A stretch of 20,000 bases of DNA from an uncultured virus (IMG/VR IMGVR_UViG_2690315929_000005) (taxonomy: Duplodnaviria > Heunggongvirae > Uroviricota > Caudoviricetes): positions 49,611-69,610 of IMG/VR virus record IMGVR_UViG_2690315929_000005; one strand, written 5' to 3'. Positions 7,236 to 18,332 of the stretch are shown here, piece after piece (the first letter of the stretch is position 1; each line of letters begins with the position of its first letter). Position numbers and translations under genes: made by a program. The notes beneath the pieces are model-generated. The model saw only the letters and a program-made list of their open reading frames with translations, did no database searches and had not been told where the DNA came from.

Positions 7236-7612
7236 GTTGTCTCAGTTGTCTCAATAAGAGAATAGAAAAGATAACTTATTAATATTTATAGTTATTATGA
7301 TTATTTTCTGAGACAACCCTGAGACAACATAAGCCCGTTTTGAGACAACCTAAGGCGTTTTTGAGACAACGCTGAAAAGTTTAGGTTAGCCCTTGGTTGG
7401 TTAAAAAAGTGGGTGAGACAACCGAATCAAAGGCTGAGACAACACGGTAATGAGAAAATAACCCTTAAAAATCAATTTATTGTAAAAATAAGGCGTGGGT
7501 AATCATGAGATTGAGACAACTCAAAATCATCAAGTTGTCTCAGAAAAAAATATTTAATATAGCTTAATCAATAGGTTGTAAGTATTGAGACAACTGAGAC
7601 AACTGAGACAAC
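7236..7612. repeat. Iteron cluster / putative replication origin: 13 copies of TGAGACAAC
   Basis: Forward copies start at 7309, 7320, 7341, 7362, 7414, 7435, 7512, 7586, 7595 and 7604; reverse copies at 7236, 7245 and 7534. AT-rich spacer at 7254-7308; immediately downstream of the primase. Confidence 0.88.
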
Positions 7613-9045: not shown

Positions 9046-9386
9046 TGGAAAAATTACAACGGTTAGCAAGCACTATAGCCCAGATTTATGTTGATAATTT
9101 AAAAGCTGAAACAGGAGAAACATTAGTAACTTATAACGGTATCACAGGTAAAGTTACCCCTGAATTACTGGCCGCTGGATTGTTTGATAATGCGGTATTT
9201 GCGGTTAAAGCGGATGGAGAAGAGATTGACGTTGAAGGTAAGGCGTATGATTTACTATCCCCGTTAATTAACTTATCAACAAAGCCTTACTCCCTAACGG
9301 GACAGGCATATAAATTGATTAATTTTCTCAATGTGCAGGCACTAAAAGCAGGAAGCACTTTATCAACCTTATCAGTTGTACATTAA
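9045..9386 (+). CDS. Hypothetical protein preceding the tape-measure-like gene (113 aa)
   Basis: GAGGG RBS; coupled to the upstream ORF; no family recognised. Confidence 0.75.
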   Translation: MEKLQRLASTIAQIYVDNLKAETGETLVTYNGITGKVTPELLAAGLFDNAVFAVKADGEEIDVEGKAYDLLSPLINLSTKPYSLTGQAYKLINFLNVQALKAGSTLSTLSVVH

Positions 9387-9402
9387 TCACAGGGAGAAAA
9401 TT

Positions 9403-12400
9403 ATGTATCATGGCGAAGGTTACACAGTATATGTAGATGCCGATACGGCCGGCCTTCTTGAGGCTAACCGTGAAATCGAAAAAGCAAGAAGAAAAATAAA
9501 TGATTTAGGCAACGAAGCAAACACCACAAGCAAATCATTTACTCAATTCAATAAATCAGCAATCGCGGTTTCCAGTGCGTTAAAAATGCCTGAAATAAAC
9601 CGCTTATCACGTCAAATGAGTGAATTGGCGGGGCAAATTGGCGCTGCTTCAATGGCAACAGATAAGGCAACGACTGTTAACGCGCGTTTTACAGGTGTGA
9701 TTAGCAATGTGTCTGGGCTACTAGGGGCGGGATATGTTTCTAATATTGGTAGCGCTACTGTTTCGCTCTTGCAACATACTCAAGGGGCAATTAATGCCAC
9801 ACAAGCCGAGGTTTTACATACTCGCGCTATTCAAATGAAGGCTCAGGCATTGCAAGCTGCTGCCTCCCAAGAAGTGATTAACGCCAAAAATCTTAAAGCA
9901 TCAACACAAGCAGAGCTAAAAGCAGCTCAGGCAGCGTTAGAACACGTTTATTCATTAGAAGGCTCTAATGATATCAAGCAGCGTAATTTAGAGTCACTTA
10001 GGGCACGACAGGCAGCAGTGCTCAAGGATGCTGAAATAACTTATCAAATGACTGCGAGTGAAGAAAATTTGCAGCGAGTGACTAAAGCCAGTAATGCGCT
10101 ACATGCTACGGAAACTAAAATAAAAACGCATTTAGCTACAACCGGAAAAGAAATTGCGCTTGTTGAGGCTAGAGTCGCTAAAGCAAAAGAAGCAGAAACA
10201 CTAGCAACTCAAAAATTAAATGCGGCATTAGCATTAGAGCAAAAAGCGAAAGCCACACTAGCCACTACAACAGACGCGGTGACCGTAGCTAATGGTCGCG
10301 CAGCCCAAGCGGCTAGAAGTCAATCCATTGCTATGCAAGGATTGCGAGGTGTTGTGGGGTTATTAGGTGGCCCAACGGGTGTTTTTATGTTGGCTACTGC
10401 TGGCGTGTATGCGCTATATAACGCGATGAATGATGACACCGCAACGAAAGAGTTTAATGACAGAGTAGATCAGTGGATTGATAAAATTGACGAACTGTCA
10501 GCCAAACAGGCTCGCGCTGTGGCTAACCGCTTAGGCGAGAAGATAGCGGAAACAACCACACAACTAGAGGGACAGAAAAAAAGTCTTTCCAGTGTTAATT
10601 CAGATCTAAAAAGATATGAAAATAGACTTGCTGATATTAATAAAGAGATTCAAAGACAAAAAGAACAAGGTTTTGAAGTAGGTAAGTCTTACGTTCAGGA
10701 TGATATAGTAAAGGAAATCGAAAAACTCACCAAGAAACAGCAGCAGTATGAGCTGATTATTTCAGAAGGTGAGCAGAATATTCGTCGCTGGACGGTATCA
10801 CAAGGTAAAGCCGCTAATATTGCAAAAGAGAGAGCAAAACAAACAGACGAACTCAGCAGAGCGGAATTAATTTATCAACGCCAAGCTAAAGGGATAGTTG
10901 ATGCTAACCAACAATTAGCTAGATCACTAGAGCTAGGCAGTGACGCAGCCGTTAAGAAAGAACAAGCCATCAAAGAGTTAGAAAAGGCTTTAATTGCTGA
11001 TGGTTTTGTTAAAGACTCCGAGTTATTTAAACAAAAAATACAAGAGTTAACGGATGAGCTTGATAAGAAGGCAAGTTTAAACCTTGCTAACTCTCTTGCT
11101 GAGATAGAGCAACGAACACAAGCCCTCACTATTGGCATGAAAGACGGTAAGCCTGCACTGGATGAATACAATGCCTCGTTACTGCTTATGCAAATGGGGA
11201 TAAAAAAAGGTTCGGCTACCTACAATACCGAACTCCCGAAAGCGATAGAGGCAATACGCAATTTACGTGAAGCTCAAGAAGCCGCACTAAATAGCAAATC
11301 AAATGCTAACAAGTCGTTGAAAGCGATTAATAAGGCAAATGATGCCATTAAAAAACAACAGCAACAGACTGAGACGTTAAGAAAAGAATTTGAATTATTG
11401 AGTTCTGGCGCAGCTAACGTAAATAGAGAGATGGCTATTTTTAACGCTGTTCAAAGTCTGGGTGCTGATGCGACAGACAAGCAAAAGAAAGCTATTGCTA
11501 AAGAAGTCGCCGAAGTTTTTGACCTCAAACAAAAAGTCGATGACTTTATTAAGTCGCAAGAAATTACTCCAGAGTTAAAACTTGCAAGAGCATTTAGACA
11601 AGAATCTGAAGAGCTTAAACGCATGTTTGATAATGATTTCATTGATGAAGAAACGTTTAAGGCGTTAGGCAATAAAGCAATGAAGGCATTTGATGCTGGA
11701 ATGGCTGAAATAAAAATAAACGCGGTTATTGACCCAATAACTGAAGCCAAAGGGCAATACGACCCGATACAAGCACTGGCTAACGAACACGCTAAGAAAC
11801 TTGAGATGATCCGCCAATTCGAAACAGAAAAAGGCGCTATTACTCAGCGTGGCTTAGAGTTAATGAATGCCGCTAATACTCAATATGAGCAAGACCGGTT
11901 AAATGCTCAATGGGAGATATGGCGCAATCAAAGCCAAGCCAATCAATTCTTAGCTGATGGGTTGGACGCATTAGGACAGCGCTCTACTAACGTACTCACA
12001 GGGCTATTAACTCAAACACAATCCATTAACGATGCTTTCCGTAATGTCGCCTTAACCATCGTAGACCAAGCCGTTGGCGCTCTGGTCCAAATGGGTATGC
12101 AACAAGTTAAGAATATGATTATGGGTGAAAGTATGGCGACAGCCGCTCAAGCATCTGCATTGGCTCAGGCTGCGGCAGCACAAGCGGCATGGGCACCAGC
12201 GGCATTAAGCGCATCAATAGCCACATTAGGCGCAGCAGTAGCAACGGGAACATCATCATATACGGCGGCTATGGCAGCTAGTAAAACGATGGGGTTGGTT
12301 GCTGGTGCTCGTAAAAATGGTGGACCCGTAAATGCTGGCTCTATGTATCGAGTGGGTGAAGGTGGTAAGCCTGAGATATTCAAAGCATCTAACGGTAGTC

Positions 12401-12633
12401 AGTACATGATACCGGGTGATAATGGTCGAGTTATTAGCAATCGACAAATGGGTAAAGGTGGTAATGGTGTCAGCATGGGTGATATGAACTTTACATTCCA
12501 AGTTCAAGCACCTAATGGCATTACTCAAAAGGAGGCGCAACAAATACAGCAAATGGTGAGAGGTACGGTTTATGACGTACTTGGTAACGAAATGCGTAGC
12601 GGTGGTGCTTTGGAAAAAGTAAGAAGTTGGTAA
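9403..12633 (+). CDS. Siphophage tail tape-measure-like protein (~1076 aa)
   Basis: N-terminal YTVYVDADTAGLL, long Ala/Gln/Lys-rich coiled coil, hydrophobic GLLGGPTGVFMLATAGVYALY, AAWAPAALSASIATLG, and C-terminal GARKNGGPVNAGSMYRVGEGGKPEIF...MIPGDNGRVISN typical of lambdoid TMPs. Start at ATG 9403 after AGGGAG. Confidence 0.85.
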   Translation: MYHGEGYTVYVDADTAGLLEANREIEKARRKINDLGNEANTTSKSFTQFNKSAIAVSSALKMPEINRLSRQMSELAGQIGAASMATDKATTVNARFTGVISNVSGLLGAGYVSNIGSATVSLLQHTQGAINATQAEVLHTRAIQMKAQALQAAASQEVINAKNLKASTQAELKAAQAALEHVYSLEGSNDIKQRNLESLRARQAAVLKDAEITYQMTASEENLQRVTKASNALHATETKIKTHLATTGKEIALVEARVAKAKEAETLATQKLNAALALEQKAKATLATTTDAVTVANGRAAQAARSQSIAMQGLRGVVGLLGGPTGVFMLATAGVYALYNAMNDDTATKEFNDRVDQWIDKIDELSAKQARAVANRLGEKIAETTTQLEGQKKSLSSVNSDLKRYENRLADINKEIQRQKEQGFEVGKSYVQDDIVKEIEKLTKKQQQYELIISEGEQNIRRWTVSQGKAANIAKERAKQTDELSRAELIYQRQAKGIVDANQQLARSLELGSDAAVKKEQAIKELEKALIADGFVKDSELFKQKIQELTDELDKKASLNLANSLAEIEQRTQALTIGMKDGKPALDEYNASLLLMQMGIKKGSATYNTELPKAIEAIRNLREAQEAALNSKSNANKSLKAINKANDAIKKQQQQTETLRKEFELLSSGAANVNREMAIFNAVQSLGADATDKQKKAIAKEVAEVFDLKQKVDDFIKSQEITPELKLARAFRQESEELKRMFDNDFIDEETFKALGNKAMKAFDAGMAEIKINAVIDPITEAKGQYDPIQALANEHAKKLEMIRQFETEKGAITQRGLELMNAANTQYEQDRLNAQWEIWRNQSQANQFLADGLDALGQRSTNVLTGLLTQTQSINDAFRNVALTIVDQAVGALVQMGMQQVKNMIMGESMATAAQASALAQAAAAQAAWAPAALSASIATLGAAVATGTSSYTAAMAASKTMGLVAGARKNGGPVNAGSMYRVGEGGKPEIFKASNGSQYMIPGDNGRVISNRQMGKGGNGVSMGDMNFTFQVQAPNGITQKEAQQIQQMVRGTVYDVLGNEMRSGGALEKVRSW

Positions 12634-12699
12634 TTAAAAGCGTGGATAAAAACCATAATAGGGCAGATTTCTGCCCTTTATAGTATTGAAGGGTACATA

Positions 12700-13068
12700 A
12701 TGATAAAGATAAAAGTATCTAAAAGGAAAGGTCGCAATCAATCATTTCTACAATATTGCCAGCATGTAGATCAACGAGTATCACGGGCTATGCAACGGTT
12801 TCTTTTCGATGCTGGAGCACAATCCGCAATTTATACGCCTATCGATACATCAACATTGATTAATAGTCAGTTTAGGGATGTTACTGTTAATGGTACAAAA
12901 ATAACGGGACGTATTGGTTACTCCGCCAGCTATGCCGTTTATGTGCATGATCCGAAAGTTAAGCAGAAATTTAAACGACCAACAGCTAAAAAAGAGTTCT
13001 TGAAAAAAGCGGTCGAGGAAACGCTACCTAATTTAACTAAGTATATTCATGAAGAATTGAAGAGTTAG
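12700..13068 (+). CDS. HK97 gp10-like tail completion / neck protein (122 aa)
   Basis: SAIYTPIDTSTLINSQFR...GRIGYSASYAVYVHD...AKKEFLKKA matches the TPvDTGtL...YAxYVh...FL pattern of the HK97 gp10 family. Confidence 0.8.
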   Translation: MIKIKVSKRKGRNQSFLQYCQHVDQRVSRAMQRFLFDAGAQSAIYTPIDTSTLINSQFRDVTVNGTKITGRIGYSASYAVYVHDPKVKQKFKRPTAKKEFLKKAVEETLPNLTKYIHEELKS

Positions 13069-13432
13069 CCTTCATACTTTCGTGAACAGTACGCGCGTGG
13101 AAGGAAATATGCAAAAAACAACCAAAAAGAAACCAACCATTATTTTTATGATGTACCGACAATGCGCCTAATTGTGACGTGTGAACAATCCATCAACATT
13201 CACATAAGAGCCGATAGAGTAACAGGGGCAATCATGAGGAGTTTGTGAGGCAAGCAATCATTGAGAAGCTAAAAAAAAGCAACAGCACAAATAGCTAAAT
13301 CGCTATATGTATGTGTCAATAACTTGGTTATAGCTATATATATTGTGTTTACGTTAAAAAAATAGACAGGTAATTACAAGCTCATAATGATTAGCCCCTA
13401 GACAAGATAAATATATTCAGTATTATTTATCC

Positions 13433-13505
13433 CAACAGTGCCCCTCATAACCTCTACGTAGAACGGAGAAATCTGGTTTGCGATACGTTTGGGGCTTTCT
13501 TTTAT
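13433..13505 (+). ncRNA. Candidate structured RNA upstream of the abi gene (abiF-RNA-like antitoxin or attenuator)
   Basis: GCCCC (13440-13444) pairs with GGGGC (13491-13495), followed by TTTCTTTT; internal palindrome TCTACGTAGA; possible promoter TAGACA-16-TATTAT at 13399-13426. Confidence 0.55.
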
Positions 13506-13533
13506 CTACTATCTGATAATTTTCCATGCTGCT

Positions 13534-14529
13534 ATGCACCCTCTAAAACCTCATCTAACGTATTTTGACCAAATAAAAAAGCTAGAAAAACGAGGAATGA
13601 GTTTTGAGGATCTACCTCCTGAGCAGGCGGTAAAGAAAATAATGAATATTGGATATTACAGGCTATCTGGGTATTGGTATCCATTCCGTAAGTTAAAGTT
13701 AATCCCACCAGTAGCACCCGATGAAGCCAGACGTGAAGAAACATTCCTTGAGGGTACAACCTTTACAACGGTATACGCACACTATTTATTTGATGTAAAA
13801 CTAAGAAGTTCTATTTTTTATGGAATAGAACGAATTGAAACTTATCTTAAAGCAAAAATAGCTTACGAACTAGGTAAAGTATCCCCTACGGCATACAAAG
13901 ATAAGAATATCATCCAATACAGACATCACTACCGACATGATACATGGCTAGAAAAGTTAGATTCTTTAATAGAGCGAAATAGTGATAAAGATTGTATACG
14001 ATGGAATTTAGATAAGTATGGGGATATTCCTATATGGGCTATCGTTGATATTTGGGATTTCGGTACAATGTCTCGCTTCTACGGAATGCTTGAAGATAAA
14101 TACAAACATCAAATTTGTAAATCGCTTGGCTTTCTAAAGCCTAACTCAGCAAATGTAAGAGATGGACTGAAAACAGCATTAGAGCACCTTAATACAGTTA
14201 GAAACAGGTGTGCCCACCATGCGCGTTTATGGAATACCGATTTTTCAGACTCAAAAATTAGCATCGATGTGTTAGATAATATTGATTTAACAGCCTCGCG
14301 CTTGTCTCCAAAAAGCCCTGAACTATCAAGAATGGCAGGTATCATATTTTTAATATGGAGTCTGACCAAGAGAATAAGTTGTAATTCTACATGGCTAAGT
14401 TCAGTAAATGATCATTTAGAAAAACATCAGGGCGTTATTCCGTTTAATTCAATGGGATTCGATAATAACAATATCTCAGGATTAAAAAATCTATTGGATA
14501 AGGAAAAAGAACAATCAGCCCAATCATAA
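13534..14529 (+). CDS. Abi family protein (Abi_2; AbiD/AbiF-like HEPN RNase, 331 aa)
   Basis: KPHLTYFDQIKKLEKRGM...IGYYRLSGYWYPF...YLFDVKLR...IERIE...IPIWAIVDIWDFGTMSRFY and HEPN motif RNRCAHH. Start placed at ATG 13534 rather than TTG 13489. Confidence 0.9.
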   Translation: MHPLKPHLTYFDQIKKLEKRGMSFEDLPPEQAVKKIMNIGYYRLSGYWYPFRKLKLIPPVAPDEARREETFLEGTTFTTVYAHYLFDVKLRSSIFYGIERIETYLKAKIAYELGKVSPTAYKDKNIIQYRHHYRHDTWLEKLDSLIERNSDKDCIRWNLDKYGDIPIWAIVDIWDFGTMSRFYGMLEDKYKHQICKSLGFLKPNSANVRDGLKTALEHLNTVRNRCAHHARLWNTDFSDSKISIDVLDNIDLTASRLSPKSPELSRMAGIIFLIWSLTKRISCNSTWLSSVNDHLEKHQGVIPFNSMGFDNNNISGLKNLLDKEKEQSAQS

Positions 14530-14623
14530 GCCAACCCAAATCAAATAAACTTTAATGATTTTCAGGCGCGCTAGCAATAAGTTTTCGGACACGTTAGAAA
14601 GGTTGTAAATAGAGGCTGATAGC

Positions 14624-14728
14624 GACAAATATAGACATTAAATCCTAACAAATCCTAACGTTTTTCTAATACCTAGATCCTAAGTTTTCTTAAGGTAAAT
14701 TGCGCATTCAATGCTAAGATTTGCTAAG
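14624..14728. repeat. Cluster of short ~10-bp-period direct repeat pairs
   Basis: GACAAATATA-GACATT; AAATCCTAAC x2 (14640-14659); TGCTAAG x2 (14712, 14722); CCTAAG-TTTT-CTTAAG. Confidence 0.6.
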
Positions 14729-14822
14729 GTTTTACTATCCACTTAGTATTATGATTAGATAGCTGATAACTTCAGTATATGTTGGGAGTAGCTGTAATGA
14801 TAAAACTAATTTGAGAATAGAA

Positions 14823-15482
14823 ATGCTAATAAATAAATTAAAAAATAAAAATGAGTCACCAGAAGACATTATAGAGAATTTGATATATGCCTATCAAAAC
14901 TCAAGAGAAACATATGTTGAAAACAAGAGAGTGTTTCGTGGGCGTAGTCATTCTGTCTCGGGTATTTTTGAAGATCTATTTGCTGATTATTTATCAAAAA
15001 ATTTACCTGATAGTAATCAATATTTCGTAGACCAGCAGTTGTTTTCATCAGCAGCAAATATACGATTTTTCCCAGATATATTAATTATGAATGATAAAAT
15101 AAATCGCGATATCATAGACTTAAAGCTTGATTTTGGATGGTCTAGAAATGATGTTTTTTCATTTTGTGATACGTGGAATAAAAAAATAGATAAGTTAAAA
15201 GGAACGAGTTTCACTTTCAATGATGGGATAACTAAAGAAAAAAAGAATGGTTTTTTTTCTGATAATTTAAAATATCATGTAGTAGTTTCGACAAAATTAA
15301 ATAATGGAAGTAATTTTATTGAAATAAAAGATAAAGTGACAAAAAATTTGGAGCATGTTGAGTTATATATACTCACTGACAAGGTACATCCGAATGATTA
15401 CAATAGCACTGCCGAAGAACGGGTAAAAAATATACATATATGCATGAGTGAATTTTCAAGGTTAATGAATAATTTATCATAA
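14823..15482 (+). CDS. Putative PD-(D/E)xK nuclease-fold protein (AT-rich cargo)
   Basis: SGIFEDLFADYL...FFPDILI...IIDLKLD gives E...PD...DxK spacing. Very low GC. Start is ATG 14823 or TTG 14811. Confidence 0.6.
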   Translation: MLINKLKNKNESPEDIIENLIYAYQNSRETYVENKRVFRGRSHSVSGIFEDLFADYLSKNLPDSNQYFVDQQLFSSAANIRFFPDILIMNDKINRDIIDLKLDFGWSRNDVFSFCDTWNKKIDKLKGTSFTFNDGITKEKKNGFFSDNLKYHVVVSTKLNNGSNFIEIKDKVTKNLEHVELYILTDKVHPNDYNSTAEERVKNIHICMSEFSRLMNNLS

Positions 15483-15594
15483 TAATATAATTCTTTTAGT
15501 TCTTAACGGACAAAAATATAGTTTAAATTGTCCGTTATTATAGATAGCAAAATTCGGTGATAACAAATTTTATACGTTAAAATCAATAGTTGCT

Positions 15595-16023
15595 TTAGTC
15601 CTGCAAATAATTCAATTTATTTACTATATTCTTGTGACGCCTCCATGCAGAATAGATATCTTTATCCCACGCTTTACCTGCCTTAGTTTGATAGCCTGCC
15701 TCATTAATCCGTTTAGCAATAATGCGCCCATTGGCTACACCCTCAGACAGTACAGAATTAACCACAGAAATGACAGCAGACTCATTATAGGTATAAGGTG
15801 GGATATCTGCCTTGCCAGCAATTAAAGATGCGAAAGACGATTCTAGGCGTTCCACCAGCGACAGTATGCGAGCGTCAGGATTACTGTCTGGGCGGTTTAG
15901 CTTCTCCTTGATAGCAGAGACTATCCATGCTGTTTTATCGCTACCAGAGTTCGATGCAGCATCATTAAACAGGGTTTGTAGTTCAGCAGGGAGACGAAAG
16001 GCAATAAGATTAGATTTACTTAT
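15595..16023 (-). pseudogene. RHH plus C-terminal DNA-binding protein (142 aa) with ATA in place of the start codon
   Basis: The frame extends upstream of 15855 as (ATA)SKSNLIAFRLPAELQTLFNDAASNSGSDKTAWIVSAIKEKL, an RHH pattern, with GGA upstream and an in-frame TAA four codons before. C-terminal IIAKRINEAGYQTKAGKAW resembles the recombinase-type DNA-binding motif. Confidence 0.65.
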
Positions 16024-16119
16024 GATAATAGTCCGTTATTAACTCAGTGAGCGCTTATTATATCAGCGTATAACACTGTTATACAGATTAGAAAATATAT
16101 CATTGCTAGTGGATTTAAT

Positions 16120-16800
16120 GAATAAGTCCATAACTTAAAGTTAGAGTAACCTACTGTAAAACAAGCAAAGCGTATTCTTGCGCCTTGTAACGGATTGAAT
16201 ACATAGCAAAGCTCAAAAATGAGTGCTGTACTGTGGTGATTATCGCCATAGTCGGAAAGGGTAACAGTTGAAATGCTACCCTTGGTATCAAAACCACAAA
16301 TTAGTGATTTTAGCTAAAGTAGCTAAATATTAGCCAATACAGCTAACCACATAAACATAGTGGTACTATGATGATCCGTTGACTTTCAAACGTGAGGTAT
16401 CCACTAAGGTATCCACCGAAAAGGCTATATTTTACTGGATACTTTACCCACTAAATGTTGACAATTGTTAACATCAGAACCAGACAAAACCTGACATCAT
16501 TTACTTATTTTAGGTACGCAATAAATACGTATTTAATTCTCGCAATTCACTATAATTAAATAAAATCATGGTATTACATAAAGGTATGCAGAATAGTGCG
16601 CATTGAAATGATATTATTCGCATCGGTAACTATTTGATTATCCCGAGGCCGTCACTTTGGGGCGTACTGAAATAGCGTATTTCAATCTGCTAACGTGGTT
16701 GCCATTTTGATGGTTGCCACTTTGGTTGCCAGCAAAACGGCATATTTTACGCTAGTGGATTGATAACCTTTGATTGTTCCAATTCAGCACAATCAAGGTA
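16120..16800. repeat. Non-coding array of heterogeneous short palindromes and direct-repeat pairs
   Basis: Examples: ACTGTGGTGAT-T-ATCGCCATAGT (16230-16252); AAGGGTAACA-7-TGCTACCCTT (16257-16283); AAAACCAC-6-GTGATTTT (16290-16311); AGGTATCCAC x2 (16395, 16407); ATGTTGACAATTGTTAACAT (16455-16474); TGGTTGCCA x3 (16696, 16711, 16723); TTGATTGT-11-ACAATCAA (16770-16796). Confidence 0.75.
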
Positions 16801-16833
16801 TGGCGGAAATAACCACTCCTTTGAGGTATAGCC

Positions 16834-17022
16834 ATGTTACAACGAGAAACAATAGAAGCCGTTATGATGGAGTTAGCCCACCAGCAAGGGCATTCACTCA
16901 ATGGGCGTGATCGATTAGCGATTAGAACAGGTGTAGCACAGACAATGCAGGCTAAAGAACGTCACAGACGAAGAATGACAGCACCTACCTACCAATGGAC
17001 GAAGCCAGCACCAAAAAGATAA
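16834..17022 (+). CDS. Small basic hypothetical protein (62 aa)
   Basis: GAGGT RBS 5 nt before the ATG; protein-like sequence. Confidence 0.65.
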   Translation: MLQRETIEAVMMELAHQQGHSLNGRDRLAIRTGVAQTMQAKERHRRRMTAPTYQWTKPAPKR

Positions 17023-17146
17023 TAGGTCGCCTTGAAATTAAGGGGACGTGAGGCTCTGAAATCGGAGGCTCGTCACTGGCTGGCAATATTCCAATAATGG
17101 CTACGAGGTAAAAGTAACCACAATGCAAATAAGCACTCTGGATAAA

Positions 17147-17431
17147 TATCAATAAGTTATCTATGCTGAGAGATAAGATTACAACAAAGAGCGACGGCAA
17201 GATTACGGCAAGGTATTAACAATCAGGTTTCAGTCGGTCAATTTGACCGTTAGCAATAAAAACAATGTGTTGCCAACTCTTACCATTGGTCACTGAAACG
17301 ATGACCAATGAGCGTTAATCTGGTTTTGTTACAGAATTAAGTATTATCAATCAGTTGTATTTTGATTCCGTCGATTTACCGGAATTAAGTATAATCAACA
17401 GGTTATATCTACATACGGGATAATCCCGTAT
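17147..17431. promoter_or_regulatory. Palindromes interleaved with IHF consensus sites
   Basis: WATCAANNNNTTR matches at 17147, 17345 and 17393. Perfect inverted repeats CGGTCAA-T-TTGACCG (17235-17249), CATTGGTCA-9-TGACCAATG (17284-17310) and ATACGGGAT-A-ATCCCGTAT (17413-17431). ACGGCAAG x2 (17194, 17205). Confidence 0.7.
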
Positions 17432-17547
17432 CATCATGGATAAATTAACGTTTAGATCACCCCTAGAAATTGGAATTATTACCTATACAACCTGAATCCT
17501 ACCAGTGTTTTATTTTAACCAATAGCTTATATTGTGATGGTATCAAG

Positions 17548-17835
17548 ATGAATAAACCAAAAATGAGAAAAGCAAAATCAATCAGGATCACCACATCAGG
17601 AACGGTAATCAAAGCCCCTGAGCGAGTTAAAACAGCCACAGGTAAAGTTATGGCCACAATGACTATTCAGGCTGAGAGTGACAAGCGTAGCCCGTACCCA
17701 TTAAAGATAGTGGCATTCGATATTAACGCGCTGGAGCTAATGACCTGCCAGAAAGGAAACAAAGTAACTGCTACAGGTCGCTATGAATGGTTTAATGGTT
17801 ATCAGCTAACAGGGGCGCAGATAGTTGCTGGTTAG
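17548..17835 (+). CDS. Single-stranded DNA-binding (OB-fold) protein-like
   Basis: SGTVIKAPERVKTATGKVMATMTI...IVAFDINALELMTCQKGNKVTATGR follows the SSB OB-fold pattern and lacks an acidic tail. Start uncertain (17548 or 17563). Confidence 0.65.
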   Translation: MNKPKMRKAKSIRITTSGTVIKAPERVKTATGKVMATMTIQAESDKRSPYPLKIVAFDINALELMTCQKGNKVTATGRYEWFNGYQLTGAQIVAG

Positions 17836-18146
17836 TAAAACTTAGTATCAATAGTTACATTAGGCTACTGGCCTACTTATACGCTTGACGTTAATGTTAT
17901 ATAAATTAATTTCTATAAGTCCGAATTGAGCATGGTTAAATGTACGCTAAAGTTAGTTGTATCAAAACTTACATGATGAATGAGATAAAAATATCCAGCA
18001 ACTATAGGTAACTATATAAGATGTTTTTGTTGGTCTAATGGCATATTTTCTCTGTATTTATTCGCTTCTGGCATTTTAGCCTTATAGGTTAGATTCAATG
18101 TGGGTCGATAGACTTGCTTGGATAACAACCTAAGAGAAAGCTTAAA

Positions 18147-18332
18147 ATGAATGATACAGATTTAATACTAGAAACTGATGTTTACAAATGGTTAGGACTG
18201 AAGCGTACGGCATTATGGCGACTAAAAAAGAAGCATGAATTTCCTCTCCCTGTTTTATACCGACCAGCAAAATATCGTAAATCATTAATTCAAAAGTGGC
18301 TTGATGATGGCGGGGTGAATAGAAAAAAATGA
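18147..18332 (+). CDS. AlpA-family regulator / excisionase
   Basis: LILETDVYKWLGLKRTALWRLKKKHEFPLPV...YRKSLIQKWL is the AlpA winged-HTH pattern. Confidence 0.8.
   Translation: MNDTDLILETDVYKWLGLKRTALWRLKKKHEFPLPVLYRPAKYRKSLIQKWLDDGGVNRKK

Follow-up and report, generated by a model that had tools for sequence, protein, structure and literature searches.

The window analysed here is the last 20 kb (20,000 nucleotides) of a 69.6-kb provirus record, and positions refer to it unless the contig is named. A lambdoid siphovirus prophage occupies the first 46 kb of the contig and is separated from a second element, an integrated island, by a tRNA-like att core at contig position 46414, the only att core found. 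After att the island carries genes for a tyrosine integrase and AlpA, both upstream of the window, and its further genes encode AntA, Ash, ORF6N, a Toprim-DUF927 primase, ProQ, a tape measure, a tail-completion protein, Abi_2 and a beta-family protein. From att to the contig end the island spans at least 23 kb. Among the 26 window and 3 upstream proteins scanned we observed no capsid, large terminase or lysis genes, the right end of the island lying beyond the contig, and no terS-like reading frame was found in the part of the element on the contig. An iteron-like 9-mer, TGAGACAAC, is present in 13 copies at 7236-7612, after the primase gene, and these repeats are likely to mark the replication origin. 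Six boxA-like motifs lie ahead of alpA (L613 1779-2406, just before the window; 0 of 200 shuffles). The leader of the Abi_2 gene (13434-13500) has exact stretches of 25 and 41 nt in common with the prophage (contig 20079-20145), and a lone palindrome at 12659-12682, before the tail-completion gene, is like an array unit of two related islands (L018 and L025).

Two genes flank the non-coding tract that is the subject of this study (Table 1). The protein encoded on its left, by what we call the anchor gene, shares 85-89% identity with Proteus and Providencia proteins and 77-80% with those of Morganella, Xenorhabdus and Photorhabdus, and every Atlas lead for it fell below 0.9. The start codon of the anchor gene (16021-16023) is ATA in the window and ATG in most relatives, and a conserved palindrome upstream of the gene (16066-16084) is likely to be its self-operator. 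The initial annotation had described positions 16120-16800 as a stretch without a credible ORF, tiled nearly back-to-back with different inverted and direct repeats, and had proposed a library of decoy binding sites for phage proteins. Indeed, no ORF of 50 aa or more is present in 16043-16833. Using 8-bp arms with at most one mismatch, we counted 14 local inverted repeats in 16120-16830, where dinucleotide shuffles gave 3.7 ± 1.9. Short-period direct repeats numbered 8, compared with 1.35 in the shuffles; neither count was reached in any of 500 shuffles, in keeping with the density that had been claimed. Along the contig, the inverted-repeat count was reached in 3 of 195 sliding windows, namely the tract itself and a pair of AT-rich windows close to 14645 and 15000, and the direct-repeat count in 2 of 195, the tract and the putative replication origin. 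By strict criteria inverted repeats cover 37-44% and direct repeats 26% of the tract, which is dense, although 'nearly back-to-back' was slightly strong. The repeats that had been named were all located: AGGTATCCAC at 16395 and 16407, TGGTTGCCA at 16696, 16711 and 16723, AACCAGACAA/AACCTGACAT at 16478/16488, and variants of TAGCTAAA at 16310-16347. The array itself extends as far as about 16822, and there are related clusters beyond the 16120-16800 interval.

No repeat unit is shared across the tract and no family extends beyond a local pair or triple, so that, as had been argued, it is neither a CRISPR array nor a VNTR. It could instead act as RNA, in the form of a hairpin array or a guide RNA array, given its many hairpin-forming palindromes and the existence of RNA-guided satellite conflicts (VIPR, in the available part of 10.64898/2026.10.15.759431). 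We consider this highly improbable, as no Rfam family matched in 12600-18200, no sigma-70-like site was found within the tract, there is no common repeat unit and the units appear to copy DNA sites on both strands. The GGYNN periodicity of VIPR solo vrRNA arrays was not evident in the tract by eye.

Table 1. Genes and repeat units of the island discussed in the text; copies are putative.
Feature	Position	Strand	Remarks
Tape measure and tail-completion genes	9376..13068	+	Point to helper class
Sf6-type terS copy	13076..13095	+	20 nt identical to terS of neighbouring prophage (its nt 164-183)
Second cluster, Terminase_2-type direct repeats	14640..14735	+
Anchor gene, left of tract	15595..16023	-	Ribbon-helix-helix-like start by eye; recombinase-like HTH lead
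Palindromic unit, no matched source	16127..16161		16/20 to Bro-N site, below threshold
Rha-gene palindrome copy	16163..16190	-	17/20 to L184
Rha-gene palindrome copy	16196..16226	-	21/22 to L186; blastn matches in Acinetobacter phage rha genes
Palindrome, no matched source	16227..16253		P22_AR_N-like by eye only
Rha-gene palindrome copy	16255..16285	+	19/22 to rha gene of neighbouring prophage
Palindrome, no matched source	16288..16310
TAGCTAA/TAGCCAA repeat unit, no source gene	16310..16347		Conserved in Proteus, Providencia and Xenorhabdus arrays
Palindrome, no matched source	16350..16376
terS-derived unit, GGTATCCA type (phrog_1206)	16380..16446	+	52/67 nt identical to terS in L077
Terminase_2-type 10-bp-period unit, TGTTGACA/TGTTAACA	16452..16476	+	Near-palindromic; 17/20 to L219
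Terminase_2-type unit, ACCAGACA/ACCTGACA	16477..16500	+	18/20 to L222; terS matches
Degenerate GGTACGCA unit	16510..16531	+	terS-type likely; integrase-arm-like origin possible; window copy without strong match
Bro-N-gene palindrome copy	16530..16562	-	18/20 to L480
Eroded GGTACGCA pair	16582..16603	+	Intact in most orthologues, there matching phrog_1206-type terS
Bro-N-gene site and perfect IHF-consensus box	16627..16662	-	29/35 to L485
Palindrome, no matched source	16665..16690
terS-derived unit, GGTTGCCA x3	16694..16766	+	15- and 12-nt spacing of the gene; 40/69 nt identical to L335
Palindrome, no matched source	16769..16796
P22_AR_N-gene palindrome copy	16797..16822	+	19/22 to L198
Flanking 62-aa gene (phrog_7271)	16834..17022	+	No function assigned
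Second palindrome cluster	17025..17440		KilA-N-type site, Bro-N-like sites, three perfect IHF-consensus boxes

The direct repeats led to genes for the phage small terminase, TerS. In viral contigs the pattern AGGTATCCAC-NN-AGGTATCCAC occurs at 28 loci, of which 17 are genes of one family, 10 are orthologous arrays and 1 is unrelated; the one family member scanned among the matches to two copies of GGTATCCA is a terminase small subunit of phrog_1206 (E 1.5e-82). The GTTGCCA triple, three copies of GGTTGCCA, gave about 160 matches in viral contigs, and among the 120 listed 102 lie in terS on the same strand, 9 in arrays, 1 on the opposite strand and 8 elsewhere, many of the at least 102 terS matches being near-identical copies. 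This unit had been missed by blastn, which gave no match for 16685-16830 against phages, because the program is too blunt for such short units; with the entire tract as query, E. coli genomes likewise gave one weak blastn match. For the unit at 16477-16500 we observed, among noise, matches to the terS genes of phig1e, EG-TP1, two Bordetella phages and Morganella phage IME1369_01, which span four unrelated phage groups. In the Terminase_2 family search the control gave a match in Bacillus subtilis. For phrog_1206 phages such as HK639 and SEN34 we found no mapped pac site in print, and no solved structure for the family; site-level pac mapping is likewise absent from the available parts of PMC12597102, PMC5217972 and PMC12946183.

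Within terS these source sequences occupy the 5' part of the gene, either at the DNA-binding domain or directly behind it. The direct repeats of the tract are best read as copies of repeats located within terS genes, and it was in terS, among other regions, that the initial annotation had suggested looking for matches. We infer that the terS repeats are candidate sites read by TerS, that is, pac sites. Both GGTACGCA units are eroded in the window copy and intact in most orthologues. The satellite as a whole carries at least 7 terS-type copies, which come from three unrelated TerS families and include an allele series within one family.

Integrase arm sites are short direct repeats, and the initial annotation had compared the direct pairs with the arm sites of tyrosine integrases or with iterons. 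By eye, the unit at 16510-16531 does resemble element-end sequences, as do its longer orthologues. The direct repeats map to terS genes instead, however, which largely refutes such an origin for the GGTATCCA, GGTTGCCA and Terminase_2 units; moreover, the sole att core is far off and the iteron-like repeats of this element are a different 9-mer after the primase gene. A role as arm sites or replication iterons is therefore extremely improbable.

The terS genes also offer a view of how such repeats might be recognised. We compared the genes in L062-L089, L141-L166 and L334-L453 and observed that the type of in-gene repeat co-varies with two residues of the putative recognition helix in 58 of 58 terS sequences, two of the four helix-repeat classes having been fetched by DNA pattern. 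THG is found with GTATCCA (10 sequences), S/TEG with GTACGCA (7), SDT with GTTCGCA (4) and S/TH-T/Q with GTTGCCA (37). In a 51-row tree built without the helix and the repeat, well-supported branches force at least 3 changes each for GTATCCA and GTTGCCA. The putative helix and the repeat are about 70 nt apart in terS, and co-transfer of a short cassette by recombination could give the same pattern. The two helix residues nevertheless represent a candidate recognition code for the in-gene repeat, which would predict His versus an acidic residue with CCA versus CGCA, and Gly versus Thr/Gln with GTA versus GTT.

The palindromes point to a second group of genes. In the enterobacterial genomes sampled, the Rha, P22_AR_N, KilA-N and ORF6N genes each contain a variable palindrome at one alignment column. 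We gathered a reference set of 161 in-gene sites independently of the array, dropping before the site counts 11 loci with a wrong frame or duplicate as well as loci cut by a contig end. Seven array units match these in-gene sites at 17/20 or better, three of them Rha, one Bro-N, one P22_AR_N and two Terminase_2. At this threshold same-gene control segments gave 0 matches, 60 shuffles a mean of 0.18 with a maximum of 1, four other non-coding stretches 0, and palindrome-preserving relabelings of the array 0, 0 and 0. No array unit reached 16/20 against AntA sites, and DUF3102, for which the search returned weak matches, was left out of the site library. A scan with the pattern of 16627-16662 itself placed 7 of 32 loci in frame within one gene family, with 3 of 3 scanned being Bro-N. 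IHF boxes were scored against the IHF consensus. Six palindromes of the tract are evidently copies of palindromes within Rha, Bro-N and P22-Ant genes. Palindromic units are present on both strands.

The resemblance to antirepressor-gene palindromes that had been proposed thus stands for Rha, Bro-N and P22_AR_N, but the best matches are in phage genes, one of them in the neighbouring prophage, and not in the antirepressor genes of the window. Together with the terS matches, this agrees with the earlier description of the tract as a collection of different short phage-derived sites. About seven tract units have no matched source gene. For the palindrome at 16227 the pattern scan returned 9 arrays and 2 copies of one unrelated sequence, and blastn of 16222-16312 against phages gave scattered short matches only, with one further match at a gene end. 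Scans with the TAGCTAA unit found no source gene either, one returning 9 arrays and the others 95 loci in 53 unrelated clusters.

Related copies are also found outside the tract. The unit at 13076 is assigned to the Sf6 type because it is identical to the terS of the neighbouring prophage, the product of which is an Sf6-type protein; blastn of this unit against phages gave no terS match. Of 101 related loci, 24 have the Sf6-type piece at 17/20 or better in the orientation of the window and 2 have it reversed. The cluster at 14640-14735 matches the terS genes of phiS10 and Shewanella 1/41, and against the in-gene sites it gave 3 matches at 16/20, versus 0.5 in shuffles. By blastn this cluster also matches unannotated stretches of the Streptococcus satellite phages Javan574 and Javan594, a hint that Gram-positive satellites may carry similar copies. 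In the second palindrome cluster the KilA-N-type site (17117-17152) is identical over 36 nt to a non-coding stretch of the prophage after a Q-like gene. That prophage stretch has a small row of palindromes of its own (contig ~20150-20250).

Orthologous arrays differ from that of the window by gain or loss of whole units, a comparison that the initial annotation had proposed. Scored against the site library, six other arrays reach 3-11, and the E. coli-type arrays L018 and L026 score 0. In other enterobacterial genera (L107, L019, L018, L026 and L016) the same position holds arrays of different units, including KilA-N, ORF6N, Rha and other terS alleles. The terS-type units are strongly directional: outside terS-like frames, 86 distinct pairs face the main direction of the element versus 3 (65 versus 2 loci of 101), and for Terminase_2-type matches the numbers are 68 versus 12. 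In 16 orthologues identity to the window is 96.8% for repeat cores, 86.9% for spacers and 90.8% for the whole tract, compared with 78.8% at four-fold sites of the anchor gene, all of these values being from related sequences and inflated by the alignment filter. The 2-nt Terminase_2 spacers are invariant, and so are conserved like the cores.

These data bear on whether the tract is merely neutral debris, in which phage gene pieces captured by recombination are now decaying. Longer broken terS pieces do lie near the tract position in the relatives L054, L026, L058 and L123, two units are eroded in the window copy and some orthologues have lost units. Against this, the part retained is each time a repeat or a palindrome, the source genes belong to six or more unrelated families, the cores are more conserved than synonymous sites and the orientation is biased. 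In addition, a relative without the tail-completion and Abi genes retains a 25-nt Sf6-type piece and an 18-nt palindrome. Decay alone is therefore an improbable account of the tract, and the broken terS pieces suggest that part of a gene is captured and then worn down to the site. In L037, L051 and L054 the slot upstream of the anchor gene is occupied by a stretch that looks cos-like by eye or by a broken 5' piece of terS, which hints at the way units may be acquired and at the use of cos helpers as well.

It is also possible that the copies act as a sponge, soaking up helper TerS and regulators and lowering phage yield without starting packaging, which is close to the decoy purpose first proposed. 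The units are non-coding and many, satellite amplification would multiply them, and the palindromic ones lie on both strands; extra chromosomal pac sites are also known to lower the productivity of P1 (cited in the available part of PMC11260489). We nevertheless consider this unlikely as the main function and do not favour it for the terS units, because almost all of these have one orientation, a feature needed for directional packaging but not for a sponge. In the part examined the element lacks its own terminase, so it needs a packaging signal of a helper, and its tail genes fit helpers with matching terS. Of five prophages that have a matching terS, four encode proteins related to the satellite tail-completion protein (56-63%) and to the C-part of its tape measure (42-84%), these tail relatives being absent in the fifth; the tape measure has a relative in the neighbouring prophage too. 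The two roles are compatible, and titration is favoured for the palindromes.

Taken together, the tract is probably a non-coding library of packaging signals for multiple helpers, combined with a cluster of operators for helper regulators, in an apparently terminase-less satellite. In support of this stand the identity of the units, their one-way orientation, the turnover of whole units, their conservation, and the lack of a terS, terL or capsid gene in the part examined. We hypothesise that, on induction of a helper, its TerS would bind the matching unit on replicated satellite DNA and TerL would cut near that unit. Headful packaging would then proceed along satellite concatemers, in the reading direction of terS, into helper capsids, and the particles would be finished with tails using the satellite's own tape measure. 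Less firmly, the palindromes, several of which sit beside IHF boxes, would probably bind the Rha, Bro-N, Ant or KilA-N proteins of the helper, together with IHF. On amplified satellite DNA our first guess would be titration of these regulators, and our second cis control of the two flanking genes.

Helper signals are known from PICIs: in the available part of PMC6092414, EcCICFT073 has two cos sites and Gram-positive PICIs carry pac or cos. Our element resembles the PICIs described there in having no terminase among the 29 proteins scanned, in its integrase, AlpA and primase, and in having apparent helper packaging signals in non-coding DNA. EcCICFT073-type PICIs have more than one signal, with effects that differ by helper in the part of the literature available, and multiple signals are present here too. 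In contrast to PICIs, however, there are at least 7 terS-type copies, which would be signals of headful and not cos type and are mixed with regulator sites. The hallmarks of Gram-negative PICIs are present, namely a tyrosine integrase beside att, AlpA, a primase and a putative origin. The median size of such PICIs is about 10 kb in the excerpted literature, and because the element is at least 23 kb and carries tape measure and tail-completion genes we do not class it as a plain Gram-negative PICI. Vibrio PLE is a tail-encoding satellite. So are the F5/SUSP1 satellites, which in the available part of their description have their own tape measure and no capsid or terminase (10.64898/2026.10.15.759431). 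The element here is like both in its own tape measure, with no capsid or terminase among the 29 proteins scanned. As far as the same partial source describes it (10.64898/2026.10.15.759431), F5 has a recombinase, a baseplate protein, GGYNN guide RNAs and mostly no replication module, and differs in this from our element with its tyrosine integrase, AlpA, DUF927 primase and DNA site arrays.

In SPP1, pac coincides in part with the region of gene 1 encoding the DNA-binding domain, and DNA is packaged in the direction of transcription (available part of PMC6316719); the P22 pac, in gene 3, works with very little context (available part of PMC11260489). The sources of the tract units resemble these sites in lying in the 5' part of terS, whereas the copies in the array stand apart from any gene. 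The terS-type units further share with pac sites their asymmetry and the directional bias given above. For the palindromes a parallel may be Roi of HK022, which Clerget and Boccard are said to have found in 1996 to bind within its own gene, at a site adjoining one for IHF. The same module of palindrome and IHF consensus is seen here for Bro-N and KilA-N sites, and the source palindromes have the feature of Roi/Rha-type intragenic operators, a fixed gene column, often beside an IHF box. Unlike HK022 Roi, with one site in one Rha-family gene, the satellite has a row of sites from four regulator families. In the literature covered, chiefly open-access papers, we came across no description of pac or operator libraries drawn from several families. 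PICIs with helper pac or cos, even with two cos, are known, and the multi-family site library would extend this kind of packaging-signal mimicry.

How headful TerS finds pac is unsettled; in the available part of PMC9611059, TerS of pac phages binds DNA weakly in vitro, without clear specificity and in a way that looks unspecific. The pac of ES18 is unmapped, according to the accessible part of PMC11260489. The satellite has in effect excised candidate pac sites for three TerS families, and its array offers candidate targets for the Rha, Bro-N, KilA-N and Ant proteins, about whose roles little is known. More tentatively, the island may hold an updatable catalogue of the cis signals of its helpers, comprising pac sites of three TerS families, operators of four regulator families and nut-like sites before alpA. 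Such a catalogue would make satellites promiscuous for helpers without proteins of their own, and would mark the unmapped pac sites and operators of phage families as well as a two-residue TerS code. If this is true, the satellite uses many helpers through DNA signals alone, in hosts that include the opportunistic pathogens Proteus, Providencia and Morganella, in which islands of this kind carry defence genes.
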